This document shows, piece by piece, positions 2,978 to 49,416 of a DNA stretch of 49,416 bases. Position numbers and translations under genes: made by a program. This DNA comes from Deltaproteobacteria bacterium (lineage in GTDB: Bacteria; JAEEML01). The notes under the pieces were generated by a model. It ran no database searches. It was given only the letters and a program-made list of their open reading frames with translations, and was not told the origin of the DNA. Location: positions 1-49,416 of the forward strand of contig JAEEML010000004.1 of assembly GCA_016283195.1 (NCBI GenBank). Direction: 5' to 3'. Each line of letters opens with the position of its first letter. Position 1 is the first letter of the stretch.

Positions 2978-3065
2978 AAAGCCGCTTTTGTTATAAAGTG
3001 GGGGCAGTTTTCCCCGCCTTGTCTTTCAAGAAAACGGGAATTAGTAAAAATAAAGGAGAAAAAAT

Positions 3066-4733: not shown

Positions 4734-4760
4734 TTATAATTATTATTTTTGAGGCAATAA

Positions 4761-5917: not shown

Positions 5918-5949
5918 AGCTGCCAATTACTAACTTGTTGGAGTTACCA

Positions 5950-32774: not shown

Positions 32775-34607
32775 ATGAATAGTGATTTTAAGTGTCTTTG
32801 GAGCGAAAAAGCGCTGCTTTTTGATGGCGCCATGGGCACGGAACTTTACAAAAGACACCAGTTTTTAAATGTTTGTTATGAAGAGCTTAATTTCAAGAAT
32901 CCCGCTTTGGTGGAAGCGATTCACCGGGAATATCTGGCAGCCGGCGCGCAGGTCTTAACCACTAACAGCTTTGGTGCCAACAAGCTAAAACTGGCCGCCA
33001 ATTTTTTAGCCGATAAAACTTATGAAATAAATTTTAGAGCAGCGGAACTGGCGCGCCAAGTAGCGGGCCGCGAACACTTTGTTGCCGGCTCCGTAGGGCC
33101 GGCGCAAGCTGCCTCCGGAAGGCCAATAACCAGCGAGGAATTAACTGATATTTTTAAAGAATCCATTAAAGGCCTCATGGATGGCGGCGCCGATTTTATC
33201 ATCTTTGAGACTTTTACCAAAAGAAGCGAAATTTTGGCGGCAGCCAGAGCGGCCACTGCTTTGGGAGCACCATATATTCCTTCTATGGCTTTAACCGAAA
33301 GCGGTTGCTCGCGGGCCGGAGAAACCATAGAGCAATTTTTTGCTTCCTGGCCGCAGGATATAGCCGCGCCGCTCATGTTGGGGCTAAATTGCGGCCTGGG
33401 CCCAAAAGATATGCTAAAGCAGCTGGAAAAACTTTTGCCCATAGCCGGCGCCCTCCCGGTACTAGCGGAGCCCAATAGCGGGACGCCGCAGCTCATAAAC
33501 GACCGCTTAATCTCCCTTACCAGCCCGGAATATCTGGCTACTTATGCCGGTCACATGTTGCAAATGGGAGTAAAAGCCATCGGCGGTTGTTGCGGCGTCT
33601 CGCCTGAGCATATCAAAGAATTGGCTCAAAGTTTAAAGACGCGCCAGGTAAAAAGCATTTCCGTGCTCCCGCCGGCGGCCGCGCCGGCAGCGGCTGAGCC
33701 GCTGCCTCTCCCCCAACGCAGCGCTTTTGCCGCTAAACTGGCCCGTGGCGAGTGGGTCTCCAGTGTGGAAATTACCCCGCCAACAGGTTGTGATTTAAGT
33801 AAATTTTTAGAAAAAGCCGCTCTTTGCCGGGAGGCGGGGATAGATGTTATTAATATTCCCGACGGGCCACGGGCCAGTGCCCGCTGCTCACCTCTGGTGA
33901 GCGCGATTAGCGTGCAAAAGGCGCTGGGGCAGGAGGTCGTCCTGCATCTGGCCTGCCGCGATCGCAACATTATTGGTATGCAGTCCGACCTCCTGGGCGC
34001 GGCCGCCGCGGGTCTTGGCAATATTCTGATAATTACCGGCGATCCGCCGAAAGCGGGCAATTATCCCTTTTCTTCGGCGGTATTTGACATAGATTCTATT
34101 GGGCTCATCGCTATTGCCGCCCGTCTGAACCGGGGCATTGATATCGGCGGCGCCGCTATTAAGCCGCCTACTGCCTTCGCTATAGGCTGCGGCGCCGATC
34201 CTAACCACCTGGACCGGGCGCGGGAGATTGCCCGCTTAAAAGAAAAAATTGCCGCCGGTGCCGATTATGTGGTGACTCAGCCCATTTTTGACCCCAAAGT
34301 GCTGGCCGATTTTCTTAATGCTGCCGGGCCGCTCGGTGTGCCGGTGATTGCCGGTGTCTGGCCGCTGATGAATGCCAAAAATGCGGAATTTATGAATAAT
34401 GAGGTGCCGGGAGTTTCGGTGCCGGAAGCTATAATCGAGCGTATGCGGGCGGCTAAGAGTAAAGAGGAAGCTCACGCTATAGGGGCTGATATTGCCGTAG
34501 AAATCATTGGTGAGATTCGCCATTTAGTGCAAGGAGTGCAAGTGAGCGCGCCGCTTGGCAATACCAAAATGGCCATAGAGGTAATAAAGCGCTCCTCTGT
34601 AGGATAA
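32775..34607 (+). CDS. Bifunctional homocysteine S-methyltransferase / methylenetetrahydrofolate reductase (YitJ-like)
   Basis: DGAMGT, GLNC, GGCCG Zn ligands; C-terminal MTHFR with E..PP, NIPD.P.A, HLACRDRN, TGDPP, TQP. Confidence 0.92.
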   Translation: MNSDFKCLWSEKALLFDGAMGTELYKRHQFLNVCYEELNFKNPALVEAIHREYLAAGAQVLTTNSFGANKLKLAANFLADKTYEINFRAAELARQVAGREHFVAGSVGPAQAASGRPITSEELTDIFKESIKGLMDGGADFIIFETFTKRSEILAAARAATALGAPYIPSMALTESGCSRAGETIEQFFASWPQDIAAPLMLGLNCGLGPKDMLKQLEKLLPIAGALPVLAEPNSGTPQLINDRLISLTSPEYLATYAGHMLQMGVKAIGGCCGVSPEHIKELAQSLKTRQVKSISVLPPAAAPAAAEPLPLPQRSAFAAKLARGEWVSSVEITPPTGCDLSKFLEKAALCREAGIDVINIPDGPRASARCSPLVSAISVQKALGQEVVLHLACRDRNIIGMQSDLLGAAAAGLGNILIITGDPPKAGNYPFSSAVFDIDSIGLIAIAARLNRGIDIGGAAIKPPTAFAIGCGADPNHLDRAREIARLKEKIAAGADYVVTQPIFDPKVLADFLNAAGPLGVPVIAGVWPLMNAKNAEFMNNEVPGVSVPEAIIERMRAAKSKEEAHAIGADIAVEIIGEIRHLVQGVQVSAPLGNTKMAIEVIKRSSVG

Positions 34608-34644
34608 CTAAGTAAATTAAAAGATAAATTAAAGAGGATTAAAT

Positions 34645-35319
34645 ATGTCAAAAGATGCTGTTGTTTTGCTTTCCGGTGGCCTTGATTCCACCACCGTGGC
34701 CGCCATGGCTCTGGCTGAGGGGTACACATTACATGCTCTCTCTTTCCAATATGGTCAGCGCCATCAAGCCGAACTTACCGCCTGCCGCCGCGTAGCCACT
34801 GCCCTGGGGATAAAAGATCACCGCATTGCGCAAATCGATCTCCGCCTCTTTGGCGGCTCGGCTTTAACAGCCGATATTGCCGTGCCTAAAGACAGAGAAC
34901 CGGTTCAGGATATTCCCATTACTTATGTGCCGGGGCGCAATACAATATTTCTCTCTTATGCTCTGGCTTTTGCTGAAGTCACGGGTTCCGAAGCTATATT
35001 TATCGGTGTAAATTCCGTTGATTACAGCGGTTATCCCGATTGCCGCCCGGAATATATTGCCGCTTTCCAAAAAGTGGCTGATTTGGCCACCCGCCACACT
35101 GTTACCGGCCATCCTTTGCAAATAAAGGCGCCTATTCAGTATATGAATAAAGGGGAAATTATCAAAACCGGCCTGGCACTCGGAGTTGATTACAGCATGA
35201 CCATAACTTGCTATGATGCCGATGGCGAGGGCCGGGCTTGCGGCCGCTGTGATTCCTGCAAACTGCGCTTGGCCGGCTTTGCGGCTAACGGCATAAAAGA
35301 CCCGGCGCCATACCGCTAG
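34645..35319 (+). CDS. queC: 7-cyano-7-deazaguanine synthase
   Basis: [30 protein letters not shown]...CG.CDSC.LR. Confidence 0.97.
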
Positions 35320-35340
35320 GCTTTAAGTCAGTGGCCTTTG

Positions 35341-35550
35341 GTGTTCGCAGGCTTGGCGCCCAAATTTTTGGGGCTCAATATGCTTGAAGCGCTGCGCGCT
35401 TTTTGGGGACCTCACCTCCTAACTTATTGGATTTTTATGAAAATCGCCCCTCTCCCAAGCGGCGAGGGGCTCCGCTCATTGAAAGCTAAAACTTATTAGC
35501 TGTTATTTTGTCCTCTCCCCACAGTGTGGAGGGGAGATATGCTTGAATTC
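35341..35550 (-). repeat. ~200-bp conserved non-coding element, copy A (inverted relative to 46359-46557)
   Basis: Reverse complement aligns by eye to 46359-46557, e.g. GGAGCCCCTCGCCGCTTGGGAGA vs GGAGCCCCTCGCTGCTTGGGAGA, and TAAGTTAGGAGGTG in both. Confidence 0.85.
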
Positions 35551-35558
35551 TGCCTGAG

Positions 35559-35574
35559 TGTTTCATGTGAAACA
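35559..35574. promoter_or_regulatory. parS-like ParB-binding site
   Basis: TGTTTCATGTGAAACA, one mismatch to the palindromic consensus TGTTTCACGTGAAACA; intergenic. Confidence 0.75.
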
Positions 35575-35609
35575 AGTTGGCTTATTGCCCGGCGCCTACT
35601 TTGAAAAAA

Positions 35610-36596
35610 TTATGGGCACACGGAAAGTATGCCGGTGGAGTTGATACATAAAGGCCCGCTGGTGCCGCTTGCGGGTAAACTTTCGGGAGCTATACGCACA
35701 TTCAGCAGGTAATCAACTTCTTTTGAACCTTCTGGTTGCCCTTCATCAGTATCAATTTGCATGGAACCCAGACGTTTTATATCCGGTATATAAGTGCCAT
35801 TGGCGTTTTGCAGTACACTGACCTGTAGAAGAGAGCTACCAGCAATTTTAACATAAACTTTTATAATTTTTTTATTATCTTCGTAGCTTCCTTTAACATA
35901 AAAGCGTGTTTTATAATATTTTTCTCTAAATTTTCGGCCATCCAGCTGGGTAAAACGGGCTATAACATGATCACTGGAGAAATTATTAATATCTTGAGGA
36001 ACTTGATATTCTCCGCCTTGAACAAACAGAGTGCCCATTCTATTTTTGCCCTCATTATCGCGGTAAGTTATAAGCAATAAAAAACCGGCATAAGCAGGAT
36101 TAGGATCATTTCCGGGCTTGACTGTAAGTGTTCCTAGTTCATACCAGCCTGAATCCGTAATGACTTGCCTGGACAAGCTATCCGCCGTACCAGCTTTGCC
36201 GGCGCTATCGGCACTTTGGGCATGACCAGCTTCGGCGGCCTGGATGGCAAAAGGCACGGAGGAAACGGCAATGCGCGGAGTCATTTCGTCATCGTCACCA
36301 ACTTTGATGCCCAGTTCGATTTTGTCGGCGGCGACAATTTTATTTTTGTCGACACCGTCTATTGTGAAGTTGTAAAAGCCGTTTTCCACGGTAATATTTT
36401 TAGTAACCGCTTTAATAACTTCGCTGTTACCATCATAAAGAGTGGCCACAATTTTAACCTGTCCGTTCATTAATTCGCCATCTTCCCAGAGCAGGCCGTG
36501 GTGGGTAAAGCTCATGGGGACGGCGGCCATGGCCGATGAAGCTGCCAGCAGAAAGCCAAGAGTGGTAAGTGTCGTTAATAATTTTTTGCTCTTCAT
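35610..36596 (-). CDS. Secreted fibre/adhesin-like protein A (conserved N-domain, variable tip)
   Basis: AAGGAG RBS; signal peptide ending AMA; the first ~125 aa are clearly paralogous to 44901..46298 (AAVP.SFTHHGLLW...ENGFYN...ELGIKVGD..EMTPRIA.SSVPFA); C-terminus unrelated to that paralogue. Confidence 0.75.
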   Translation of the reverse strand: MKSKKLLTTLTTLGFLLAASSAMAAVPMSFTHHGLLWEDGELMNGQVKIVATLYDGNSEVIKAVTKNITVENGFYNFTIDGVDKNKIVAADKIELGIKVGDDDEMTPRIAVSSVPFAIQAAEAGHAQSADSAGKAGTADSLSRQVITDSGWYELGTLTVKPGNDPNPAYAGFLLLITYRDNEGKNRMGTLFVQGGEYQVPQDINNFSSDHVIARFTQLDGRKFREKYYKTRFYVKGSYEDNKKIIKVYVKIAGSSLLQVSVLQNANGTYIPDIKRLGSMQIDTDEGQPEGSKEVDYLLNVRIAPESLPASGTSGPLCINSTGILSVCP

Positions 36597-36614
36597 TTTC
36601 TTCTCCTTTTAGCT

Positions 36615-37277
36615 CTACTTCCAAGAGCCATCGTTTACCTTAACTTCATGGGTGGAATCTTGAGCGCTGCCAGCCATGGAACCGCCTAAAACCTGCACTT
36701 TATAACGGTTGCTGCTGGCTTTGCCGGCAATATTGGTTAGAGTTGCTCCAGCCGGTAATTTTATTGGTGTTTCAGTAACAATTTCAGTGTTTTCCCGGCA
36801 AATATTCCCTTCACAGACTAGACCTTCGGCGCATTTATTTTGCTCATCGCAAGCTTCGCCTTTACCTCGCGGGTTGCTTGCTTTTAGGACACACTTCTTG
36901 TTTTGGCAGGTATAGTTGTCTTGGCAATCAGTATCGTTTTTGCAAGGTTTTTGGCAAATGCCGTCCAGGCATTCAAGGCCGCTTTCGCAGAGTATTTTAA
37001 GATCGCAGCTTTCGCCGTTTTTGCTCCTTGGTGTGGTATTTTTTACGCAGCGCTCATCTAGGCAGGAGGAATCATTAGGACAATCGCTGTTATCTTGGCA
37101 AACTTTTCGGCAAATGCCGTTTTCGCATAATAGGCCGGGCATACAGTCATGCTCGGCATCGCACTGGTCACCCAGTTGCCCGGTATTGCTTGGAGGCACA
37201 GGCTTATCCGGGCAACCAGTAAGCATGGTTAGAGCAACAATGGAGGGAGCAAGAATCAGGCGGGGGAAGAGTTTCAT
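36615..37277 (-). CDS. Cys-rich lipoprotein A, partner of fibre A
   Basis: GAGG RBS before ATG 37277; lipobox LTGC; CxxxxxCxxGLxCxxGxC repeats; C-terminal LPAG..LTN..GKAS..RYKVQ.LGGS.AG...NDG.WK shared with 44226..44882. Confidence 0.8.
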   Translation of the reverse strand: MKLFPRLILAPSIVALTMLTGCPDKPVPPSNTGQLGDQCDAEHDCMPGLLCENGICRKVCQDNSDCPNDSSCLDERCVKNTTPRSKNGESCDLKILCESGLECLDGICQKPCKNDTDCQDNYTCQNKKCVLKASNPRGKGEACDEQNKCAEGLVCEGNICRENTEIVTETPIKLPAGATLTNIAGKASSNRYKVQVLGGSMAGSAQDSTHEVKVNDGSWK

Positions 37278-37411
37278 TCTGCACCTCAAACTTGGTAAGG
37301 CGAACCGATTTTCGCGCTTAGGTCTTTTCAAGACCTAATATACAGGCTAGCCTGTAAAATTTGAAAAAATTTGCGCAATGTCTTCGGAGGAAACTCTGTG
37401 AAGATGGCGGG

Positions 37412-38038
37412 TTACAATAAGCGATAACGCATTTTATTGAGCTGAGCTCTGGCGGCCGGCGACCAGGTAGTGCTGCTATTGGCTACCGGCGACATGACAT
37501 AAGAAGAAGCATAATCATCGTGCTCAACATAAAAAAGATGCGCCAGTTCATGTTGCAAAGTGGAAACAAGCCGCGTCGAATTTAAGAGCGATTCAGTGGA
37601 AAGCGCTATAATTACAAGGTTTTTTTGTGGATAGGCCAGGCCGGCGACATCCAGCCACTCATGATCGCTCTTAATGGCTTGCGGATTTCCGGAAAGTATT
37701 ACCGTAAAATGGCCGGGGCGCTTAGGCGATATTTTGTGCTCTTCACCTATGGGGAGAGGGTGCACTTTAAAGGAATCTATAGTGAAATTTATGCCGGCGG
37801 CTTGAAATTGCTCAAAACTTTCGCTAACAGCGGCTAAAATAACCTCCTGTTGTGAAAAGGCGCTATCACTTATTATATCAACTTTAATGTTCACCGGCTT
37901 ATACGGATTGGCCCAGAGAGAGGCAACTTTGCTGCTGACTATGGCTGAATAGCGTCCGCCGGCCATAAAAGTATCCAGTGTATAAAGGAGCAAGAGCAAA
38001 AGCCCAAAAAAGAAAGTGTGTTGCATTAGCCTTTTCAT
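37412..38038 (-). CDS. Membrane-anchored or secreted metzincin zinc metalloprotease (reprolysin/matrixin-like)
   Basis: HELAHLFYVEH (HExxHxxxxxH) followed by Met-turn YVMSP; N-terminal hydrophobic segment. Confidence 0.75.
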   Translation of the reverse strand: MKRLMQHTFFFGLLLLLLYTLDTFMAGGRYSAIVSSKVASLWANPYKPVNIKVDIISDSAFSQQEVILAAVSESFEQFQAAGINFTIDSFKVHPLPIGEEHKISPKRPGHFTVILSGNPQAIKSDHEWLDVAGLAYPQKNLVIIALSTESLLNSTRLVSTLQHELAHLFYVEHDDYASSYVMSPVANSSTTWSPAARAQLNKMRYRLL

Positions 38039-38209
38039 GATCTACTCCAATGTAGGTCTAAATGCCACTTTTCAGCTTATACAACTACAAGAATATAGCA
38101 AATAAATAGCGATTTTTTTATAAAGTAGTTGAAAATTACCCTGTTTTTTGTCAGATAGCAAAGGACATTTGGCAATTGGCTGCTTTATGATAAGTGGAAG
38201 TGTGTCAAC

Positions 38210-39703
38210 ATGAAAATTATAAAAAAGGCACCTCATATTTTACTTTTTTGCTGCTCTTTCCTGCTGCTCACATCTTGCGGCGGCACCACCTTGGCCCAGC
38301 ATCATGCTAATGTTTATCGGGCCATGGAAAGAGAAGATTGGCCGGGTGCCAAAATCTATGTCGAAAACAATAAAAAAAGCATGTACGATAAGCAAAATGC
38401 CAAATTGCTTTATCAACTGGATAAAGGCTATTTTGCCCAGCATTCCGGCGAACATCAAGAGGCCGCCGCAAATTATGAAAAAGCAGTGGAAATAATAGAT
38501 GATTTATGGACTAAATCCATCCGCAAAGAAATTGGTGCAGCCACGCGCGGCGAGAAGGTCAAAGACTATGCCGGGACAGATTATGAAAAAGTACTCGCCC
38601 ATATATATGCGGCTATAAATTACGCTCTGGCCGGCGATTTGGAAAACGCCCGCGTGGAAGCCAGGGCTGTGAGCGACCGTTTGCAACAATACAATGATCA
38701 TGCCGGCAAGAAAAATACCTATAAAGACGATGCTTTTGCCCGTTGGTTCAGCGGCTGGCTTTTGGAGTCCGAGGGCGATGAACAGGCCTTTAATGATGCC
38801 AAAATAGATTATGAAACTGCCTATGAAATTTATAGCGCCTCCGCCTATAGCGATATTTATCAGAGAACCGTCCCTGCTTTTGTAACAGAAGATTTGCTTA
38901 GAGCGGCCTCTTATGCCGGTATAGAAGATACTATAAAAAAAATAGTTAAAAAAAATTCAAAAGTTAAGTATCTACCGGCCAATGAATTTAAACAAAAAGG
39001 GCAAATTCTTTTTATCCACCAGGTGGGAATGGCGCCAGAAAAAGAAGAGACGGTAGAAACCACCTCGGTGGCCAGAGAAATTTTGCGCGCCGCCGTAAAT
39101 GACATGGAAGCCGATGGGGAAAATCAAAATTCAATGCGGCAATCGGGCCTTAGTGGCAGTTCTTTTTTAAGCGGCGCTTTTGGGGCGGCTGTCGGGCAGG
39201 CCACTATTGCCTATCCGGTGCTCGTTAATAAGCCATATTCGCTGGTTGGCTCGGAAATTGCAGCTGATGGCCAGGTGGCGGAAACTGTCTTAGTGGAGGA
39301 TATCGAAGCTCTGGCTCACAAAATTTACGCCGAAGAATTGCCCAGGATTAAGCGCCGGGCCATGACCCGCACGGTTATAAAAAATATTATGGCCGGTATC
39401 GCGGCTTATGCCAGTAAATCCATTTTGATTAAGGCCCTTAACTTGAATACTAAGCCCACGGTGGCCGATTTTGCGCTTGGTTATGCTCTGGCCGACAGGG
39501 GTTATTACCATGCCGATATTCGCAGCTGGTTTGTTTTGCCCGCTAAATTAAGAGCCGCTAAATTATATCTTGATCCGGGTACTTACACGCTAACGGTGAA
39601 TTATAAAAACCACAGCGGCGCGGTTGTTAAAACCAAAACTTTTGCCGATATTAAGGTAAAAGCCGGGCAGTATATTGTGCTTAGCGACAGAACAGTAAAT
39701 TAA
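38210..39703 (+). CDS. TPR-containing outer-membrane lipoprotein (COG3014-like)
   Basis: Lipobox LTSC; Y.G..YEKV..H.Y.A.NY...G..E.ARVE, ADIRSW..LP motifs. Confidence 0.75.
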   Translation: MKIIKKAPHILLFCCSFLLLTSCGGTTLAQHHANVYRAMEREDWPGAKIYVENNKKSMYDKQNAKLLYQLDKGYFAQHSGEHQEAAANYEKAVEIIDDLWTKSIRKEIGAATRGEKVKDYAGTDYEKVLAHIYAAINYALAGDLENARVEARAVSDRLQQYNDHAGKKNTYKDDAFARWFSGWLLESEGDEQAFNDAKIDYETAYEIYSASAYSDIYQRTVPAFVTEDLLRAASYAGIEDTIKKIVKKNSKVKYLPANEFKQKGQILFIHQVGMAPEKEETVETTSVAREILRAAVNDMEADGENQNSMRQSGLSGSSFLSGAFGAAVGQATIAYPVLVNKPYSLVGSEIAADGQVAETVLVEDIEALAHKIYAEELPRIKRRAMTRTVIKNIMAGIAAYASKSILIKALNLNTKPTVADFALGYALADRGYYHADIRSWFVLPAKLRAAKLYLDPGTYTLTVNYKNHSGAVVKTKTFADIKVKAGQYIVLSDRTVN

Positions 39704-41148
39704 ATTATCTCTTCGGCTTTTTTGGTTTCTTCGGCTTTTTCGGCCTGGAGCTCTTGATAATAATAAATAGCTAAAATTTTTTGGGTTTCCGGCCGGCATA
39801 AAGCAAGCGCACTGCGACGCACGCCCACTATCCAGAGCGGATTTTCGTCTGCATCACATAGAAGTAATTTTTGTGCCCGCTCAGCCGGGGGAATTTTGGC
39901 ATCGGAGAGTATTTTATTTACTTTAACCGGCTTTTTATGGCCCAGTACGGGCAGCGCCAGATTAGCTGGTAAAAGGTCGATTTTAAGTGGCCAGGTGATT
40001 TCCTCTGCGGCCACATATATTAAATTGGCATCACTGGGCGGATTGCTTTTTATTTCTTCCGGCGTAACTTCTTTAATAATAAGCTTGGCATTAGGTAGAT
40101 TATAGCTGCCTGGACCCGGAAGCTTTAGTGTGTTCTGCTGCTTTTGCTCTTCGAATAATTCAGCGATTTTACTAGCTATTTCGCGGCGCTCGGCCAGAAT
40201 CAGCCGGCCGGAGCTTACGGCCAAAACCATATTATCCGCCAGCCACAAGAGGGCGCTTTTAGCGGTAGCCGCTTTAATAAACTCTGCCACTTGCTCAAAG
40301 GAAGGCTGGTAATAATGATTAAGAACTTTTTGAATAGCCAGGCGGGCTACCCGCCTTTGCATGGCCAAATGGAGCTTTTGAAAGTCACATTGGCTTAAAG
40401 TTAGGGGATTATAATTTTGAGCCAGCCGATTAAAGGCCGCCTCGGCCTCTTTGGCCATATAATCTTCTTCGGCGGCAATAATTTGCCCGGAGCGCACCAG
40501 CATAGGTCTTACATCGCGGCCGGCAAATTCCGCCCAGAGGGGCAGTAGTTTTAGTCTAAAGCGATTCCTTAAATAATCCAAATGGTTATTTGAAGAGTCA
40601 CGCACCGGTGAGACCCCTTTGGCGCGGCAATATTCTTCAATTTCTTCGCGGCGCATGGCAAGTAACGGGCGGATAAAGTGCCCTCTTTTGGGGGGAATAC
40701 CGGAAAGGCCCAAGGGGCCGCTGCCGCGCGTTAAATTGATTAAGAGTGTTTCGGCTACATCGTCGGCTTGATGAGCAATAGCCACCAGGTCAAAACCCTC
40801 TTTTTTAAATATAGAATCTATTAATTTGTAACGTAAATCGCGGGCGCGCTCCTGGAGAGCCGGCCCATGCTGCATATTTAGCTTGCCGGTGTAAAACTCG
40901 GCGCCATGCTGTTTGGCCAAATCAGCTACAAATAATGTTTCGCTTGGGGATTCCGGGCGGAGACCATGATCGACATAAATAGCTGCCAGGCGCTTTATAG
41001 CCAGTTTTTGGCGCAAGGCCGAGAAAAGGAGGAAAAGAGCACAAGAATCTGGCCCCCCGCTGACAGCTACTAATACAGAGCTGCCCGGGGGAACCAGTTC
41101 ATGGCTGGCTATAAAGTCTCTAGCCCGCTCTTCAAAGGACGCTGCCAC
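39700..41148 (-). CDS. tilS: tRNA(Ile)-lysidine synthase
   Basis: AVSGGPDS, DHGLR, AR.LRY, AH.ADD.AET, IRPLL, DSSN....YLRNR.R; GTG start overlaps the upstream stop. Confidence 0.95.
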   Translation of the reverse strand: MAASFEERARDFIASHELVPPGSSVLVAVSGGPDSCALFLLFSALRQKLAIKRLAAIYVDHGLRPESPSETLFVADLAKQHGAEFYTGKLNMQHGPALQERARDLRYKLIDSIFKKEGFDLVAIAHQADDVAETLLINLTRGSGPLGLSGIPPKRGHFIRPLLAMRREEIEEYCRAKGVSPVRDSSNNHLDYLRNRFRLKLLPLWAEFAGRDVRPMLVRSGQIIAAEEDYMAKEAEAAFNRLAQNYNPLTLSQCDFQKLHLAMQRRVARLAIQKVLNHYYQPSFEQVAEFIKAATAKSALLWLADNMVLAVSSGRLILAERREIASKIAELFEEQKQQNTLKLPGPGSYNLPNAKLIIKEVTPEEIKSNPPSDANLIYVAAEEITWPLKIDLLPANLALPVLGHKKPVKVNKILSDAKIPPAERAQKLLLCDADENPLWIVGVRRSALALCRPETQKILAIYYYQELQAEKAEETKKAEEII

Positions 41149-41459
41149 TACTCCTCGGCGGCTTTCTTTTTGAGCGAAGCTATGATTCTGGATTTGGCGG
41201 TAATGGGTTTTAATTGCCCCCGCATCTCCAGAGCGCGGCGCTCGATAGCTCTGATCTGGGCGACAGCTTCTGCCGGCATCCCGGGTAGCTCGTCCATCAT
41301 GGTCAGTTCAGCGCTACCGTCTAGCGTGGTTCCGCTGCGCATGCGTACAACATGCTCTTCTTGTGGCTCCAGCATTAAGAGTTCGTCACTATCTTTTTTG
41401 ACTTTCGTCCTAGTGCGAACTTTAGTGCTGGTGGCCGTCTGCACTGTTTGTCTCGTCAT
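41148..41459 (-). CDS. Small protein with a sigma70 region-4-like segment
   Basis: GGAGG RBS before ATG 41459 (MTRQTVQ...); LEPQEEHVVRMRSG...QIRAIERRAL resembles sigma4 LxxRExxVLRMRFG...RIRQIEAKAL. Confidence 0.6.
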   Translation of the reverse strand: MTRQTVQTATSTKVRTRTKVKKDSDELLMLEPQEEHVVRMRSGTTLDGSAELTMMDELPGMPAEAVAQIRAIERRALEMRGQLKPITAKSRIIASLKKKAAEE

Positions 41460-41684
41460 GACAAATATTCCTCCCGCCGGCCGCTTTCTGAGAACAGACT
41501 CAAAAGTCCGGCTCCGGATACTTTCGCATATTATCACAAAATAGCAATTTTTTGGCACTACTCTTTGTGATTTCTTATAAAATATCTTAAGTTGCATTAG
41601 CTTATTGCCAACCGGCAAGTGGTGCTTACTATTAGGGGGCCATGGACGGACTAAAAGCAGTCAGCCCGGTTAAGGGAGGAAAAA

Positions 41685-42647
41685 ATGGCACAGGATTATT
41701 ATAAAACACTTGGCGTGGAAAAAAATGCCAGCGCCGATGAGATTAAAAAAGCCTATAGAAAACTGGCAATGAAATACCACCCCGACCGCGTGCCGGAGGC
41801 TAAAAAAGCCGAAGCGGAAGCCAAATTTAAGGAAATCAGCGAGGCTTATGCCGTGCTCTCCGATGATAAAAAGCGCCAGCAATATGATACCTTCGGCTCC
41901 GATAACTTTAGCCAGCACTTTAGCCAGCAGGATATCTTTAACAATGCTGATTTCAGCTTCTTGGGTGACCTTTTTGGCGGCGGCGGCAGTGATATTTTTA
42001 GCCGCCTTTTCGGCGGTATGGGCGGCTCCGGCCGGCGGGTAAATATCAATTTTGGTGGCGGAGGCGGCGATATATTCAGCTCCTTTAGTGGCGGCGGTTT
42101 TGGCTCTTCGGGGCGGGGAAACGCCGCCGGCTTTGGTCAGGAAGGGCGCAGTCAAAACAGTGCCACTACCGCCACTTTGGCTATCTCTTTTGAAGAGGCC
42201 GCTTTAGGCGCCGAAAAGTCTCTCACCATAAAAGATACGGCCGGCGGGCAAAGAACCATCAAAGTAAAAATCCCAGCCGGTATCGAAAGCGGGCAAAAGC
42301 TCAGAGTAAAAGGCAGCGGCGGGCGGCCGGATATGTATTTGGAAATAAATGTGCAAAAAAGCCCGATTTTTACCCGCGAGGGCAATAATGTCCATGTGCA
42401 AGTTAGAGCCTCTATTTGGGATCTTATCCTTGGCGGCGGAGTGGAAGTGCCGCTCATTGGCGCTCCGGGGCGGCGTATCAAGATAAAAGCCGGTACTCAG
42501 CCGGGTACGGTAATGCGCCTCGCCGGGCTGGGGATTGCGCCCAAGAGCGCGAGCCCCGGCGATTTGCTCGTGACTATAGAGGCGGCTATCCCGCCGCTTA
42601 GTGCGGAGCAAACGGAACTTTGTAAGAAGATAAGGGATAATAATTAA
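41685..42647 (+). CDS. DnaJ-class chaperone lacking the zinc finger (CbpA/class B J-protein)
   Basis: J domain with HPD, G/F-rich region, C-terminal substrate-binding domains, no CxxCxGxG repeats. Confidence 0.92.
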
Positions 42648-43288
42648 ATTTTTTCAAGCAGATCCTCCATGTCGCAGCCTAACGCCAGGGAAAGTTTATA
42701 AATCGTCTGCGCCTGAGCTTTGTCGATGTCGTTTACTCTCTGCTCATAAAGCTGGATGGAGTGCAGCCCCACTCCCGATGCAGCCGATAGTTCCGACTGG
42801 GAAAAGCCCCTGTTTGGGCGGATATTTTTCAAATTCGTGCTGATAGAGCGCTCCGCAATTTTTTTATCCATCGCCTCGATAAAAGCGGTTATGTCCATTT
42901 CGTGATAGACGCTATACATTTTTATTATCTCGGAAAGCGGAACTTTGCCGAAAATTGCCTTAAAACTCTTTGCCGCCTGCCACTGATACTGCGCCAAAGC
43001 CTAGCCTGCCCAGTATTCAGGCGATCGGTTTGGCGAGAACACAGCTTCCGGAAGCTTACGGCCCGGATCGACCTTTTCAACAATGGAGCGAACAAGTTCA
43101 ATTCCCGATTTTCCGGCGATAACCGAAGGGTTTCCACGGCCGAATTTGTCGCTTATGCCGGACACAATAAAGAGCTCGGCAAATTCATCTGGTTTGAAGC
43201 CGCAGCTATTTAGCGCATAATCAAAAGCGATTGCCAGCGAGCTTTCTGCACTACCCAAATAAAGTTCACTGTATGCGCGGATCGCCAT
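42644..43288 (-). pseudogene. XRE-family HTH regulator (DUF3990-associated) with an internal nonsense codon
   Basis: ORFs 43001..43288 and 42644..42997 share a frame, separated by TAG at 43001-43003 (EYWAG*ALAQYQW, probably TGG>TAG); C-terminal HTH SQSELSAASGV...IQLYEQ. Confidence 0.75.
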
Positions 43289-43934
43289 TTTTCATGCCCT
43301 CCCGGATAATATCCATCACAAAAATACTTTTAGCTACTACTAAATGACGAAGTTCATTTTTATAAGCCGCGCGCGCCTTGGCATACGCGCCGTGTATTTC
43401 TGGTAGTAAGTTTCGCACCTTACTGTTTCAGTACCGGCAAAAGTTAGCTGGCCGAAGGCTTTATCCGAAACGAGGGCATACTGAATGCCGAGTTTTCCCA
43501 GGCGCATCGCTTTTTCCAGGCTTGCCAGCGGCAGAGTGTTGTTGATGAAGTCTCTGGCAAAAGAAAAATAGGAGTCGTCTGCGCGGTAGCCAACGATTAC
43601 ATCAAAAGGAGCGGTATCAATAGCGAAGTTGTTTACAAGATATTCCTTGGCCGCCGCCGCAATTGCGTTTTCCAGCGAAAAATTCTGTTTTGCAGCAAGA
43701 TGGCTAGCCAATTCAGAACATTGTAACATTTGTCCTGCATATCGAGCACTTTAAGCCCGCTTTTTCTTAAACTGTATTTATTGACGAAACCATTGCTGTT
43801 TTCTCTGGAGGCCCACTCTTTGGCAACTTCGATCTCCTTGGTGCAGTAGAATCCCTGCCCGTAGTCGTTGTGTTTTTTCCCGGCTGCAAGAGTTGGTTTC
43901 TCAATGATTTTCGTTGAACCATGGATAAAATCAT
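43266..43934 (-). pseudogene. DUF3990-family protein with three apparent 1-bp deletions
   Basis: Reconstructs as MIL[Y]HGSTKIIEKP...DYGQGFYCT...NRIF/SLEN...GYRADDSYFSFA...R[D]AKARAAY...DIIREGMKNGDPRIQ; frame breaks near 43924, 43680 and 43384. Confidence 0.75.
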
Positions 43935-43949
43935 AATGCGGCTCCAATT

Positions 43950-43997
43950 TTGTATCACCATAATGATACAATTTTTTGTATCATTGTGGTGATATTT
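43950..43997. promoter_or_regulatory. Double palindromic operator upstream of the DUF3990/XRE module
   Basis: TTGTATCA-N6-TGATACAA (43950-43971) and TTGTATCA-N6-TGATATTT (43976-43997), together forming a 19-bp inverted repeat with one mismatch. Confidence 0.7.
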
Positions 43998-44125
43998 TTG
44001 TCAAACATGGATGCGGATTAGAGGATATAACAATGTGTGCACTTGTTTTTTGCTGGTGCAAAAGCAGCAAAAAACAAATATTTGCGGGAAAAATGCAAAC
44101 TCTATCACATAATATGTCTTTTTAG

Positions 44126-44152
44126 TTGACTCAAAAAAAAAAAAAATAGACT
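44126..44152 (+). promoter_or_regulatory. Putative sigma70 promoter with an A14 tract in the spacer
   Basis: TTGACT (44126-44131), C + A14 (44132-44146), TAGACT (44147-44152), about 75 nt upstream of ATG 44226. Confidence 0.6.
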
Positions 44153-44225
44153 AATTTATGTTAGATTGTATCAAAACGTCTAACACTGGCATATTTAAGC
44201 CTTTAAACAGGCCGAGGAGGGCAAG

Positions 44226-44882
44226 ATGAGGCGGACAATCTTAGTAATGGGTGTCTTACTCTTACCGTTTTTGTTGAGCAGCTGTTCCGATAAACCGGAA
44301 CAGAATGTGCCGCGTACAAGAGGAGTTAGCGAAGCATGTGACGACACCAAAAATCTCTGTGTGGCCGGGCTATATTGCGACAACGGCAAATGCCGCGAAA
44401 TGTGCAACGAAAATGTTCCCTGCGGCAGTAATGAAAAATGCGTTGATAATCGCTGTTTGCCTTGGAGCAATCCTGGTAGCAACACCGATGAGCCGGGCAG
44501 TAACACTGATAATCCCGGTAGTAACACCGATGAGCCGGGCAGCAATACCGATCTTCCAGGCACGCAATCACTGGGCGATAATTGCGATGCGCAAAATAAA
44601 TGTGCTTCCGGCCTCTCCTGCCTTGGCGGCACTTGTCACCAAAACTGCCAAGATAGCGCAGAATGCCAAACAGGCGAAGAGTGTAGAAACAGTATGTGCC
44701 AATTGCCACAAATAGCCGGGGAAACAAACAAAGTAGCTCTGCCGGCCGGCGGCGGGCTCACTAATATGTCGGGAAAAGCCAGTGATGGCCGTTACAAAGT
44801 GCAAATTTTAGGCGGCTCCATTGCCGGTAGGTCTAAAGACAATAACAAATCAGTGCAACTTAACGATGGCGCCTGGAAATAG
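44226..44882 (+). CDS. Cys-rich lipoprotein B, partner of fibre B
   Basis: GAGGAGG RBS; lipobox LSSC; Cys modules; C-terminal domain paralogous to 36615..37277. Confidence 0.82.
   Translation: MRRTILVMGVLLLPFLLSSCSDKPEQNVPRTRGVSEACDDTKNLCVAGLYCDNGKCREMCNENVPCGSNEKCVDNRCLPWSNPGSNTDEPGSNTDNPGSNTDEPGSNTDLPGTQSLGDNCDAQNKCASGLSCLGGTCHQNCQDSAECQTGEECRNSMCQLPQIAGETNKVALPAGGGLTNMSGKASDGRYKVQILGGSIAGRSKDNNKSVQLNDGAWK
44469..44561 (+). repeat. 21-bp tandem repeat (42-bp higher-order unit) encoding (N/E)PGSNTD x4
   Basis: NPGSNTD EPGSNTD NPGSNTD EPGSNTD LPG. Confidence 0.9.
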
Positions 44883-44900
44883 AGCGCAAAGGAGAAAGCT

Positions 44901-46298
44901 ATGAAAAAGAGTGTATTAACAGGTCTCACAGCTCTAGGGCTCTTGCTTGGAAGTAGTACCTTGGCCAGTGCCGCCGTGCCACTTTCCTTTACTCATCACG
45001 GCCTGCTTTGGGACGGCGATGAGCTGATGAATGGCCAGGTAAATATTACCGCCACCATTTACAAGAGCAAGAGTGCTTCTGCCGTGGCTATTAAGGAAGT
45101 TACCAAACAGGTTACTGTGGAAAATGGATTTTATAACCTCACCATAGACGATATTGATCCGGAAGCCATTATTGCCGCCGATGGCAAAATGGAGCTCGGC
45201 ATTAAAGTTGGTGATGGTAATGAAATGACGCCGCGCATAGCTATCTCCTCAGTGCCGTTTGCTATTTTGGCTGCTCATGCCGATAGTGCAAGTACAGCCA
45301 CTACAGCCGAGACAGCCGGGGGGTTAATTTGTGACCGTTGTGTTGGTGAAGAATTACTTTCTGCCGAACTCGCACAACAATTGGCTAATAGTGGTAATAC
45401 CAGTGGTGACTTAGTGGTTGCTAATAATTCCATTACTACTGAGATGATTCAAAATGGTGCTGTCACCAAGGACAAAGTAAACTTCAATTATGCCGGCTCC
45501 AGCAGCAAAGGTGGTTCGGCTACCAGCGCTGTTAAATTAGATACTGCTACCGCTGGTACTGCGGCAAAGCCTGTTTATTTTACAGGTGGTAAACCGGAAG
45601 TTGTCACCAGCATTGATAGCAGCTTAATCTCTGGTATTAAGCCAGCGAATTTGGATAAAACAGCAATGCTTGACTACCTCTATCCTGTTGGTTCTATTTA
45701 TATTTCTGTCTCTTCTAACAATCCGAGCACCCATCTTGGTGGAACGTGGGAACAAATAAAGGATAGATTTATGCTGGCTGCCGGTACAACATACGCTGCT
45801 GGAAGTACTGGTGGCAGTGCTACTGTCAGTCATACTCATACCGTAACTGGTACTAATTCCGCAGTAACACTCACTTCAAGTCATATTCCTCAGCATACTC
45901 ATACTTTTTCAGGAACTGCCGCTACTATAACCGTAACCGGTGGTAGCCATTCACATACTATATTTGCAAACACTAATGGCAGTCCTGACGGACAGGGTGA
46001 TCATAATGCCAGTACCGGTCCGAATCGCTACTGGAATGGAGCTAAGGTACAAAACCAAAATGGTAGTGTATATTCAAATCCTTATAGTGGTAGTAATACT
46101 TCTAACACCAAACCTCTAACAGATGTTTCAGGTTCTTTGTCTCTGTCAGGTTCTTATACTCCCAAAGGAACACTTTCCTCTTACGGTTCCGCTTCACCAA
46201 GTTCTCATACCCACACTTTTTCAGGCACTGCAGCTTCAACAAGTGTTAGCAATATGCCGCCGTACCTCGTCGTTTATGTCTGGAAACGCACCAAGTAA
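44901..46298 (+). CDS. Secreted fibre/adhesin-like protein B with a phage tail-collar/baseplate-type C-terminal domain
   Basis: Signal peptide ending ASA; N-domain shared with fibre A; C-terminal YPVGSIYIS....P....GGTWEQIKDRF.LAAG...GSTGG...NMPPYLVVYVWKRT with four HxH motifs. Confidence 0.82.
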   Translation: MKKSVLTGLTALGLLLGSSTLASAAVPLSFTHHGLLWDGDELMNGQVNITATIYKSKSASAVAIKEVTKQVTVENGFYNLTIDDIDPEAIIAADGKMELGIKVGDGNEMTPRIAISSVPFAILAAHADSASTATTAETAGGLICDRCVGEELLSAELAQQLANSGNTSGDLVVANNSITTEMIQNGAVTKDKVNFNYAGSSSKGGSATSAVKLDTATAGTAAKPVYFTGGKPEVVTSIDSSLISGIKPANLDKTAMLDYLYPVGSIYISVSSNNPSTHLGGTWEQIKDRFMLAAGTTYAAGSTGGSATVSHTHTVTGTNSAVTLTSSHIPQHTHTFSGTAATITVTGGSHSHTIFANTNGSPDGQGDHNASTGPNRYWNGAKVQNQNGSVYSNPYSGSNTSNTKPLTDVSGSLSLSGSYTPKGTLSSYGSASPSSHTHTFSGTAASTSVSNMPPYLVVYVWKRTK

Positions 46299-46358
46299 TA
46301 TTTAGCAATACAGTTAGTGTCCAAATGCTATGGTAGCCTCACCACGAAAAATACTTGT

Positions 46359-46557
46359 AAATTCAGGCATATTTCCCTTTCACACTGTGGGAGGGGACAA
46401 AACAACAGCTGATAAGTTTTATGTTCCAATAAGTGGAGCCCCTCGCTGCTTGGGAGAATGGCGATTTTATTAAGAAATTCACTAAGTTAGGAGGTGGGCC
46501 TGCGCAGCGCTCTCGGCATGTCGAGCCAAAAAATTTGGGCGAACCACCAGCGAAAAC
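46359..46557 (+). repeat. ~200-bp conserved non-coding element, copy B
   Basis: Aligns to the reverse complement of 35341-35550; same position and orientation relative to its fibre gene as copy A. Confidence 0.85.
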
Positions 46558-46580
46558 AGGAGGACTAACTGTCTCACCAC

Positions 46581-46642
46581 TGTGTCACCTGACACACTTT
46601 GGCACACTTTTGACACACCTGACACACTTTTGACACACTTTG
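46581..46642. repeat. Array of short TGACACAC(TTT) direct repeats plus one inverted copy
   Basis: TGTGTCA-CC-TGACACACTT TGGCACACTTT TGACACACC TGACACACTTT TGACACACTTTG; period 9-11 bp. Confidence 0.85.
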
Positions 46643-46764
46643 TTAAAACCACACAAAATGCGTTAAAGACTCATAATTACAACTGGTTATATGCTTTTTG
46701 AAGTTTGGCACGCAATTTGCATTCAGATTGGCCGGCCAGACTATCTGGCAAAAAGGAGCTATTT

Positions 46765-47865
46765 ATGCGCATTCGAGTTACTAATGATGTCATCTTTCGT
46801 GCCCTCTTTGGCAACCCGGCCCACAAAGAGGTTCTCCTGGCCCTTATCAATGCTGTTTTTGACGACAGCGGCTCGGAACTCATTAAAAGTATCGAGATTA
46901 TCTCGCCTTATAACCTGCCGGAGGTCTATAGCGACAAAGAGAGCATTTGCGATATCAAAGCCATAAGTGAAAGCGGAAAGATTATCGACATCGAAATGCA
47001 GGTTTTGCGAAGGGCCGATTATATCGACCGCTCCCTTTATTACTGCGCCCATAATTTAAGCTCGCAGCTTAAAAGAAGCGAATCTTATAGCGAACTGCAC
47101 CAGGTAATCTGCATCAGCATTTTGGATTTTGACCTCTTCCCCGACGATGAAGAGCCGCACCACACCGCCCAGATGGTGGACCGCATAACCGGCGAGCCCC
47201 TAAGTGAAAAGATGACTATTCACTTTCTGGAGCTCCAAAAAGCGGAAAAATATGCTAATATTACGGCCGAACTTGCCGCCTGGGTGCGCTTTTTTGCTCA
47301 TGCGCACGAGGAGGATTACATGGAGAGCGCGGTTTCGGCCATCGGTGAGGCCCATAGCTTTTACCTTGAACTACTGAACAACACCAAGCTGGTGGGAATT
47401 GCTGCCGATCGTGAACGGGCCTATCGTGACTGGATATCGCTGATTAAGAATAAGGAAAAGGATGATAAGAGAATAGCCGAAGCTAAGCAGGAAATTGCCA
47501 AAGATAAGCGGGAAATAGCCAAAGATAAGCAGGAAATAGCTGAAGCCAAGAAAGAAATAACTGAAGCCAAGGAAGAAATAGCTGAAGCTAAGGAAGAAAT
47601 AGCCGAAGCTAAGGAAGAAATAGCCGAAGCCGAGCAGAAAATAGCCAAGGATAAGCAGGAGATAGCCAAGGACAAGAAAGAACTGGACTTAATTCGTATT
47701 CAGCTTGGGCAGGGACAAGCTGAATTGAAAAATCAAAAACAGCTTGTTTACGATCAAGGAAAACATGAGAAAGCCGTGACTCTGGCCAAAAAATTCATGG
47801 CTCTAGGCCACAGTAAAGAAGAAGCCGCGAAATTTGCGGAAATTGATGTGAAATTGCTTGATTAG
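46765..47865 (+). CDS. Rpn family recombination-promoting nuclease / PD-(D/E)xK putative transposase
   Basis: AAGGAG RBS before ATG 46765; NDVIF..LFG, K.SICDI.A, IDIEMQ, RSLYY, ISILDF, IHFLEL.K; C-terminal coiled coil and helical tail. Confidence 0.9.
   Translation: MRIRVTNDVIFRALFGNPAHKEVLLALINAVFDDSGSELIKSIEIISPYNLPEVYSDKESICDIKAISESGKIIDIEMQVLRRADYIDRSLYYCAHNLSSQLKRSESYSELHQVICISILDFDLFPDDEEPHHTAQMVDRITGEPLSEKMTIHFLELQKAEKYANITAELAAWVRFFAHAHEEDYMESAVSAIGEAHSFYLELLNNTKLVGIAADRERAYRDWISLIKNKEKDDKRIAEAKQEIAKDKREIAKDKQEIAEAKKEITEAKEEIAEAKEEIAEAKEEIAEAEQKIAKDKQEIAKDKKELDLIRIQLGQGQAELKNQKQLVYDQGKHEKAVTLAKKFMALGHSKEEAAKFAEIDVKLLD
47470..47679 (+). repeat. Ten 21-bp tandem repeats encoding heptads EIA(EA/KD)K(E/Q)
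   Basis: RIAEAKQ EIAKDKR EIAKDKQ EIAEAKK EITEAKE EIAEAKE EIAEAKE EIAEAEQ KIAKDKQ EIAKDKK. Confidence 0.9.
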
Positions 47866-47965
47866 TCAGTAATAATTGCCCAGCGGTGCCTAGCTTAAGA
47901 ATAGCGCGATTCGCCAGCCTGCGGCGCCCTTACCCCACGAAAAATGGAAATTATAGCCGCGCACC

Positions 47966-47989
47966 CTCTCTGTTTTTACAAATAGAGAG
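47966..47989. terminator. Stem-loop downstream of the rpn gene, possible terminator
   Basis: CTCTCTGTTT-TTAC-AAATAGAGAG, 10-bp stem with one G-U pair; no clear U tract. Confidence 0.35.
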
Positions 47990-48095
47990 AGTCTATTTGA
48001 TTGAATTTATATGATTTTGCGGAGCTGCCCAGCAAGCTGAATCCGGGCGGTGTTCTGACCCCCAAAATTTGGACACCTTAACTTGAGGTGCAAAA

Positions 48096-48470
48096 ATGCT
48101 AAGTCAGTATATGAAAGAGTTGCGGGAAGAGATTCTAAAAGAGTATGAATTAGGAGTTTATGGTTACCGGTTGCTAGCGAAGCGGTACGGACTAAAGCGA
48201 GATACCGTCAGGGATTGGGTTAGAGCAGCTCGCAAAAAAGGAAACACAGTGGGAAAGCCAAAAGCAAAACTTAACAGGGAAAAGCCTAAAGATATAAAGC
48301 AAATGACTCGTGAAGAGCTTGAAGAAGAGCTTGATCTATCCAGGCATGCTGCTGACTTTTGGGAGTTTTACGCCAAGGAGCTACTTGAACAAATAAAAGA
48401 AGAAAGTAAAAAAAAGTGCAATTGGAACTCTCGACAAATACTGTCAACAAAAGAAAGTAAGCGTCAATAA
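48096..48470 (+). CDS. IS3 transposase OrfA (HTH)
   Basis: GYRLLAKRYGLKRDTVRDWV helix-turn-helix, leucine-zipper-like region, A8G run at 48408-48416. Confidence 0.8.
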   Translation: MLSQYMKELREEILKEYELGVYGYRLLAKRYGLKRDTVRDWVRAARKKGNTVGKPKAKLNREKPKDIKQMTREELEEELDLSRHAADFWEFYAKELLEQIKEESKKKCNWNSRQILSTKESKRQ

Positions 48471-49376: not shown

Positions 49377-49416
49377 ATTTGGAGAAAAACAATGCTACTA
49401 AATGTTGTCCAAAAAA

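Follow-up and report, generated by a model that had tools for sequence, protein, structure and literature searches.

Lipoprotein-coupled genes for putative fibre adhesins in an uncultured gut bacterium

Introduction

How is a secreted fibre held on the cell that exports it? The question is raised by two gene pairs, here called cassettes A and B, in a 49,416-nt stretch of DNA from an uncultured Deltaproteobacteria bacterium (assembly GCA_016283195.1, contig JAEEML010000004.1, positions 1 to 49,416; hereafter the window, in whose numbering all coordinates of the stretch are given). Each pair encodes a Cys-rich lipoprotein followed by a secreted protein with a conserved N-terminal base domain (N-domain) and an unrelated C-terminal tip, an arrangement reminiscent of the mosaic adhesive trimers (MATs), which were described in 2024 as prey-recognition adhesins of Bdellovibrio (Caulton et al. 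2024, PMC10769870). According to the accessible parts of that paper, all 21 MATs of Bdellovibrio bacteriovorus HD100 carry a conserved β-rich domain of ~130 aa after the signal peptide, their tips have been swapped during evolution, and the surface element bound by the MAT N-domain is unidentified; in the accessible portions of a 2025 and a 2026 review, no MAT anchor is named. Judged from their sequences, the fibres described here appear to be new members of a MAT-like superfamily of chimeric adhesins. The lipoprotein gene appears to be translationally coupled to the fibre gene, and the terminal domain of the lipoprotein is predicted, weakly, to bind the fibre base.

Results

Two inverted gene pairs with related bases and unrelated tips

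Cassette A lies on the minus strand and cassette B, inverted relative to it, on the plus strand. Lipoprotein A (36615..37277; 220 aa from an ATG at 37277, with an alternative TTG start possible at 37331) and lipoprotein B (44226..44882; 218 aa) are 35% identical over 204 aligned columns in BLASTP (E 2e-29), and their last ~49 residues are 59% identical, ending in NDGSWK and NDGAWK, respectively. This C-terminal domain of ~50 residues, named lipC here, occupies 36618..36782 in lipoprotein A (last 55 residues) and 44715-44879 in lipoprotein B. It is separated from the fibre gene by a spacer (36597..36614 in A, 44883..44900 in B; AGCTAAAAGGAGAAGAAA and AGCGCAAAGGAGAAAGCT, 18 nt each) that consists of an after-stop stretch and an AAGGAG ribosome-binding site.

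The fibre proteins (fibre A, 35610-36596, 328 aa; fibre B, 44901-46298, 465 aa) begin with a signal peptide and the N-domain, which together span 36222..36596 in A (residues 1-125; mature N-terminus AVPMSFTHHG) and 44901..45281 in B (residues 1-127). The two are 69% identical over 106 residues (22-127; E 2e-44), up to the sequence SSVPFAI, and no significant similarity between them was found beyond the N-domain. Fibre B continues with a neck containing a CxxC motif, a shaft and a tip (45282..46298). The tip of fibre A follows a short linker (linker and tip, 35610..36221, residues 126-328), so that fibre A has no shaft. Behind each fibre gene, similarity resumes 71 and 73 bp past the stop codons and reaches 78.9% over 194 bp (35357-35549 versus 46360-46541).

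These shared features are not due to chance. They correspond to what an initial annotation, made from the DNA letters alone, had described: two inverted cassettes with the same gene order, a common NDG(S/A)WK domain at the end of the lipoproteins, a short conserved spacer, fibres that share a signal peptide and N-domain and then diverge, and a similar stretch of ~200 bp behind each cassette were all found as reported.

A genome-wide family of fibre base domains

In the 3.22-Mb genome (190 contigs, to which C numbers refer below), the fibre N-domain recurs in 19 open reading frames (ORFs) on 17 contigs, 14 of them complete (304-760 aa) and 5 cut by contig ends. One of the contig-cut fibres may have its other half on contig C34, in a 5'-truncated frame with a tip of the phage-related Gp10_C family. 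All 19 members have a signal peptide, which in the alignment ends with an AxA-type cleavage site just before a nearly invariant VP(L/M)SFTHHG. An AlphaFold2 model built from a 148-row alignment shows a compact β-sandwich (residues 28-112) followed by a helix (predicted local distance difference test (pLDDT) 84.7; predicted template modelling score 0.71), and the succession of signal peptide and conserved β-rich N-domain that characterizes Bdellovibrio MATs is seen in both the 19-member alignment and the model. The fold gave no match to the PDB at E≤1e-3 in Foldseek; in a wide structural search with VIA, all neighbours were generic immunoglobulin (Ig)-like sandwiches (best Z 7.8), and a search of BFVD returned one match (3e-4, TM 0.41).

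Ten to 35 residues or so past the N-domain helix, 13 of the 19 fibres carry a CxxC motif (for example LICDRCV or LQCAGCV), which may be an inter-chain disulfide or a metal site in the neck of a trimer; it lies at 45360-45380 in fibre B and is absent from fibre A. A tree of the N-domains separates a group of 8 genes from one of 11, with weak support for the split (54/95). Upstream of the fibres on C33, C47, C58 and C121, which belong to the clade without lipoproteins (see below), inspection by eye reveals a TTGAC(T/C) motif 40-110 bp ahead of the gene, then a TAGACTA or TAGAATA box ~17-20 nt downstream of it and a TGTTAG..(C)TGC sequence; this looks like a common promoter and leader of that clade. 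The fibre gene on C77 (13195-16030) adjoins genes that by eye resemble pilT and pilB of type IV pili; possible interplay between MATs and type IV pili is raised in the accessible text of PMC10769870.

To what extent are these domains those of MATs? Searched against 1.84 billion representative proteins, a profile of the 19 N-domains gave 17,212 matches at E≤1e-3 (733 at E≤1e-10), with the matched segment in almost every case at the N-terminus of the protein; a word-index protein search, which is insensitive to remote relatives, found own-genome proteins only. The NCBIfam model NF053851 (Bdello_MAT_N, "mosaic adhesive trimer family chimeric fiber protein"; curated cut-off 60 bits) is matched by 16 of the 19 N-domains at E≤10 (best 5.6e-6; fibre B, E 3.1e-4, 20.6 bits), all short of the 60 bits or more that mark the Bdellovibrio MAT family, and a profile search of the whole genome with this model gave 0 matches at E≤0.01. 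More distant relatives link the two sets, 58 of the 77 scanned matching NF053851 at E≤1e-3, with a best score (52.2 bits) that also lies below the cut-off. The C-termini of such relatives are collagen-like, fibrinogen-like (GGGWT) or AgmC-like, and in one small phylum genes of this kind occur in 24 of 26 genomes, up to 12 in each. No NF053851 match above the cut-off was found in that 26-genome phylum (24 genomes with sub-threshold matches) or in a phylum of 4 genomes, and the 14 control genomes of the family gave no match.

We read this as placing the N-domains within the MAT superfamily and outside the Bdellovibrio subfamily model; on these profile matches, the fibres are probably distant homologues of MATs, not mere analogues. 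The proposal of a modular system of the Bdellovibrio MAT type, with constant base and variable tip, is supported by the NF053851 matches of both the N-domains and their relatives. Peptidase_S74, a chaperone domain, was not found in the 14 complete fibres by Pfam at E≤0.01 or 0.001; since the NS74 subgroup of MATs also lacks it, its absence does not exclude membership of the MAT family. Relatives of this family may already be among the fibres of other bacteria given in Supplementary Tables 3 and 4 of Caulton et al.

One phage-related tip and one orphan

The tip of fibre B (45666-46292) matches Pfam family PF21939, Gp10_C, over model positions 1-139 (E 5.7e-19; 69.9 bits, cut-off 27), as well as PHROG tail families and, more weakly, PDB 2FKK, the structure of T4 gp10 (E 5e-4), with which its YPVGSIY and PPY..VY.W motifs align. 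It also contains four HxH motifs, a type of motif that binds metal on the three-fold axis in T4 gp12 and gp37. That the proteins described here would be homotrimers we infer only from the homology of this tip to the trimeric T4 gp10. Among the 14 complete fibres, Gp10_C scores above the cut-off in 5 (tip B and four others; paralogues at 71.5-105.8 bits, 7 matches in the genome) and is borderline in 1, and in the remaining 8 no Pfam family is assigned to the tip. The same shaft and tip segments reappear in varied combinations, with Gp10_C tips in both N-domain clades; the C-terminal tips have been exchanged among paralogues, as expected of a mosaic family of the MAT kind.

Tip A is an orphan domain. 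It matches no Pfam, PHROG or NCBIfam family above threshold, no PDB sequence, no paralogue in the genome and no homologue in the word-index search, insensitive as that is to remote relatives; its AlphaFold2 model has a pLDDT mostly below 50, and its Atlas scores (0.81-0.86, to hypothetical proteins of viruses) amount to no more than leads. The phage-like character that had been attributed to both tips is thus borne out for tip B by its Gp10_C match (5.7e-19) and is so far without basis for tip A.

A lipoprotein domain that accompanies the fibre base

The lipoproteins are built from a lipobox (LTGC in A, LSSC in B and similar boxes in paralogues, as read from the translations), one to four Cys-rich modules, a low-complexity linker of PGSNTD or PGDNTD repeats and lipC; in lipoprotein A, Pfam recognizes DUF7107 (37 bits, cut-off 24.6) and an EB module (28.7 bits, cut-off 24.3). 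The linker of lipoprotein B (44470-44560) consists of four 7-residue PGSNTD-type repeats, and paralogues have three or four, or PGDNTD variants; this difference in repeat number suggests that the length of the stalk may vary by repeat slippage.

A profile of lipC detects 10 copies in the genome, 9 of which lie directly upstream of a fibre gene at distances of 3-31 nt, with five gaps of exactly 18 nt that contain a ribosome-binding site. One of these lipoproteins is spread over two contigs, C109 (end) and C88 (start); the copy on C79 stands alone, without a fibre, and two more lipC-fibre pairs occur on related metagenome contigs. The pairs are confined to one N-domain clade, where they account for 9 of the 11 genes, as against 0 of 8 in the other; on the tree, the label requires 3 changes. 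The two remaining members of the 11-gene clade are C68b, the second fibre in tandem behind a lipC-fibre pair, and the fibre on C124. The latter is followed 30 bp later by a lipoprotein (C124:3-3908, minus strand) of more than 1302 aa with laminin/teneurin-type EGF repeats, whose C-terminus is cut by the contig end and might have carried a lipC domain. As for lipC itself, a profile search of the PDB gave no match, the word-index search, insensitive to remote relatives, returned own-genome proteins only, and its best Atlas score (0.75) is uninformative.

Comparison of the cassettes locates the points at which their histories change. Cassette B and its paralogue on C3 are 81% identical at the DNA level over 1191 bp, from upstream of the lipoprotein gene to position 45289; the similarity ends 8 bp past the N-domain, with unrelated DNA beyond. 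In cassette A, the leader and stalk (37351-36941) share 83% identity with their counterparts in the C109/C88 cassette, whereas lipC, spacer and N-domain (36740-36244) are closest to those of cassette B (68%). Across nine cassettes, the pairwise identities of lipC and N-domain correlate with a Spearman coefficient of 0.60 (36 pairs), or 0.70 for the 28 pairs with a complete stalk, against 0.14 for stalk and N-domain and 0.11 for stalk and lipC; since the pairs are not independent, these figures are descriptive only. Breakpoints and correlations together indicate that the unit kept together is lipC plus N-domain, across the gene boundary, and that stalk and tip, which lie on either side of it, are exchanged.

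The presence of entire cassettes also varies. The related metagenome contig L060 carries an insert of ~2.8 kb (2611-5394) composed of a lipoprotein gene split into two ORFs, a fibre gene and a gene for a lipoprotein of the FISUMP family; at the corresponding site on C69 (2287-2450), between flanks 84-87% identical to those of L060, there are ~160 bp of short tandem repeats. The occupied and the empty site indicate that whole cassettes are gained or lost as units. A scan of metagenome contigs for related loci recovered almost only the genome's own contigs and four related ones, and a scan of genome contigs found nothing.

A candidate mount for the fibre

Does lipC hold the base of the fibre? 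Prediction of a complex between N-domain residues 22-125 (147-row alignment) and lipC (10-row alignment) gave interface scores (ipSAE) of 0.59, 0.60 and 0.59 in three runs, with 0.00, 0.01 and 0.00 for the controls; the partner was modelled at a pLDDT of 52 or more, contacts agreed to at least 86%, and the result was graded as "weak support". In the calibration of this score, 116 of 157 solved complexes and 2 of 215 mismatched pairs reached the mark, with only 18 of those solved complexes and both mismatches at or below 0.60. Genetic linkage means that the prior for binding by lipC is not low. The earlier suggestion that the lipoprotein is an anchor or assembly partner is thus weakly supported by operon linkage, with lipC upstream of a fibre in 9 of 10 cases, by co-inheritance and by the weak complex score; the specific claim that lipC is the anchor and binds the N-domain we hold at slightly worse than an even chance.

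Put together, these data suggest an arrangement in which each cassette would be a two-gene operon for a MAT-type cell-surface adhesin. The fibre, exported by a Sec signal peptide, would consist of a compact β-sandwich base domain of ~90 residues, common to the 19 genes, at its start and an exchangeable binding tip at its end, which in B would be a trimeric, His-rich domain like those of T4 gp10 and gp12 and in A an orphan globular domain joined almost directly to the base. The lipoprotein, made up of a lipid anchor, a Cys-rich stalk, a low-complexity linker and the 50-residue lipC, would hold the fibre on the outer membrane by binding its base through lipC, and the stalk would determine how far it stands off. 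Recombination at two points, one separating the stalk from lipC and the other at the end of the base domain, would diversify the family and keep lipC and the base domain as one co-adapted module, and the ~200-bp sequence downstream would be an ordinary dispersed repeat outside the system. We assign this explanation as a whole a probability of roughly 0.6. Its parts differ: what is shown, namely the family of 19 genes and its architecture, the linkage of lipoprotein and fibre, the position of the breakpoints and the character of the repeat, is very likely correct when taken by itself; trimer formation, surface display, binding of lipC to the base and adhesin function are what we infer from it.

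Several observations weigh against this arrangement. Scores in the band reached by lipC and the N-domain are wrong more often than right unless the guess was likely beforehand, and lipC is modelled in the complex at a pLDDT of just 52-54. The domain was found in none of 40 other genomes, 7 of them with N-domain homologues, and 14 distant N-domain genes in other genomes have no lipC nearby and no upstream ORF with a lipobox; as an anchor, lipC would serve this lineage only. Within the genome, 10 of the 19 fibres lack lipC and must therefore be mounted in another way. The co-inheritance of lipC and N-domain could reflect mere adjacency on the DNA, and for the shaftless fibre A, "fibre" may be the wrong word. 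Finally, the listed NF053851 matches of the genome, at about 16-21 bits, lie far below 60, and with such sub-cut-off scores homology to the Bdellovibrio MATs rests on weak and transitive evidence.

The adjacency argument can be taken further, to the view that lipoprotein and fibre are co-transcribed but independent, lipC tracking the N-domain through proximity (within 0.5 kb) and joint duplication. Cys-rich lipoproteins are many in this genome, including two more in the window (5935-8421, 23021-24184), the C79 lipoprotein has no fibre and ten fibres have no lipC partner, and the complex prediction gives weak support only. Against this view stand nine of ten lipC genes lying directly upstream of a fibre and separated from it by just a ribosome-binding-site spacer, controls of 0.00-0.01 in the complex prediction, and a breakpoint inside the lipoprotein gene that splits stalk from lipC and leaves lipC with the neighbouring N-domain. 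We consider independence of the two proteins unlikely.

A helper-first, tightly coupled gene order and a predicted contact with the N-domain fit a transient export or assembly helper, similar to a pilotin or chaperone, as well as they fit a permanent anchor, and secretin pilotins do occur among the structural neighbours of the N-domain (5wec, Z 7.3; 2yjl, Z 6.7), in the score range of common arrangements. Those neighbours, however, are generic Ig-like sandwiches, and the combination of lipid anchor, Cys-rich stalk of variable length, repeat linker and small terminal domain resembles a spacer arm, for which a chaperone has no need, so that a helper role seems improbable to us and mounting by lipC remains the reading that we prefer.

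A dispersed repeat downstream of the cassettes

The DNA behind the cassettes (copy A, 35341..35539, minus strand; copy B, 46371..46561, plus strand) is not peculiar to them. An iterated nhmmer search gave 159 matches that merge into 78 loci on many contigs; 65 of these loci are no more than 400 bp from a gene's 3' end. FISUMP genes, which make up ~3% of crude gene calls, have 11 of the loci beside them. Fibre genes are followed by the repeat at four loci, namely cassettes A and B, C47, where it has the opposite orientation, and C164; among the fibres with an assembled 3' flank, it is present in 4 of 14 and absent in 10 of 14. Two copies on C132 resemble copy A more (87-88%) than copy B does (79%). 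The repeat contains a pair of GC-rich hairpins, of which one precedes a T-run and is terminator-like; both are visible as conserved in the alignment of copies A and B; relative to shuffled sequences, the folding of the copy-A region gives a z of -3.3 and that of the copy-B region, at -0.7, does not stand out. A comparison of 33000-49416 with Rfam gave no match at E≤1. Many copies, intergenic location and a hairpin-forming core are the hallmarks of repetitive extragenic palindromic (REP)-like repeats, and the downstream element is a dispersed repeat of this kind, whose occurrence behind both cassettes amounts at most to a mild enrichment. As one copy of a genome-wide repeat family, it is not a third part of the cassette.

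The initial annotation had assigned the element to the cassette, with a possible role as a dedicated 3' recombination site, and had proposed a search for co-occurrence of the three parts. That search upholds the link between lipC and fibre (9 of 10) and parts both from the repeat: with 78 loci, 4 of 14 fibres served and copy A closer to C132, it is independent of the system. The corresponding explanation, a three-part recombination cassette in which N-domain DNA and the 200-bp element flank the tip and enable its exchange, would be in keeping with the abrupt loss of similarity where the N-domain ends, with tips common to both N-domain clades and with the presence of the element within about 360 bp of 4 of 14 fibres, compared with ~1.3 expected for purely intergenic placement by a hand estimate. 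Against it stand the location of the 78 loci mostly beside unrelated genes, the ten fibres without the element, the opposite orientation of one of the four fibre-linked copies (C47) and the identity of just 79% between copies A and B. Strain data point the same way. No alternative tip was found at the N-domain boundary in low-depth contigs from four public runs, contigs which show presence only and of which no listed piece covers the whole stretch, and a contig from another run spans the junction of N-domain and tip A at 94% identity (30 differences in 492 bases), which indicates that the same combination has been kept in a diverged strain. Exchange of tips through the element is hence highly improbable, and the repeat is best left outside the two-gene operon.

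Inversion between the two cassettes was also considered and rejected, the shared DNA being just 68-79% identical and 0 of 6 listed joints representing a strand change.

Other repetitive sequences lie nearby (46593-46633, and also 35560-35573). The genome has 9 places with tandem units of 10-11 bases (CACAC, T-run, G, A or G), one of them just behind cassette B and another at the empty C69 site. The hairpin GTTTCACATGAAAC is present 3 times: once behind fibre A, once at the C69 site and once on C87.

Genomic surroundings

The neighbours of the cassettes in the window are, by eye, housekeeping genes resembling queC, tilS and dnaJ. That the fibre genes are prophage or tailocin tail-fibre leftovers and not cellular adhesins, as the matches of tip B and five other tips to T4 Gp10_C and PHROG tail families might suggest, has a negligible probability in view of the Sec signal peptide and cellular MAT-like N-domain of every member, the scattering of the 19 copies between genes with housekeeping roles (queC, tilS, lon and uvrA-like genes, for example), and the failure to see, by eye and in a family scan of part of them, any phage structural gene among the neighbouring ORFs.

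Behind cassette B lie a PD-(D/E)XK transposase-family gene (46705-47865; PF12784) with a long coiled-coil tail of KEIAEAK-type repeats and, at 48096-49376, ORFs that by eye resemble an IS3-type transposase in two or three frames, so that mobile-element genes flank this cassette. On its other side, a DUF3990 gene (43340-43971, minus strand) is split into two overlapping ORFs, one matching model positions 5-91 and the other 90-152; the split probably reflects a frameshift in a pseudogene or an error in the assembly. The two further Cys-rich lipoproteins of the window, at 5935-8421 and 23021-24184, are large, and the first matches lipoprotein A weakly (27% over 163 aa).

In the genome as a whole, FISUMP (TIGR02145) has 113 domain matches, and the fibro-slime family has 0 in a search run without a positive control. 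The Lon protein reaches a best identity of 48% among 200 sampled genomes, and the public sequencing runs that contain parts of the window are labelled as gut or sheep metagenomes.

Discussion

By coupling a fibre to a lipoprotein, the cassettes make lipC a concrete candidate for how a MAT-type N-domain is held on the cell. A stronger form of the idea can be entertained, although the odds are against it: lipC could be a dedicated outer-membrane receptor for the MAT-type base, the first mounting partner of the superfamily, and the pair a portable adhesin module that is gained and lost as a unit between strains and has three independently exchangeable parts, namely the length of the stalk, the lock between lipC and base, and the tip. 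The presence of 19 such genes in a gut bacterium without sign of predation, together with more than 17,000 relatives of the base domain, argues that the MAT architecture serves bacteria generally as an adhesin platform and is not confined to predators. What appears new here is that a lipoprotein is tightly coupled to the fibre and that its terminal domain is inherited with the fibre base, an arrangement for which we found no description in the literature searched.

Three known systems frame the comparison. The dispersed repeat is like REP and bacterial interspersed mosaic element (BIME)-like repeats in being short (about 100-200 bp), in its GC-rich hairpins, in its many copies (78 loci) and in lying mostly just downstream of genes or between convergent genes; it differs from them in that the sequence family is genome-specific and the copies are modular, with partial copies common. 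With the T4 baseplate protein gp10 (PF21939; PDB 2FKK; related to the gp11 and gp12 tips), the resemblance is that of tip B and at least 4 paralogous tips, which match above the gathering score; the domain stands here on a secreted cellular protein, whereas in T4 it is part of the phage baseplate.

The closest relationship is that to the MATs. Both sets of proteins have a signal peptide followed by a conserved β-rich N-domain that is without a specific structural relative in the PDB, both form multigene families (21 in Bdellovibrio, 19 here), and both end in variable, evolutionarily swapped C-terminal tips that include phage-like folds. Unlike the MATs, the complete members described here are shorter (304-760 aa versus ~1000 in Bdellovibrio) and belong to an uncultured gut bacterium for which there is no evidence of predation; and about half of their genes are coupled to a lipoprotein gene, an arrangement that the accessible accounts do not describe for Bdellovibrio.

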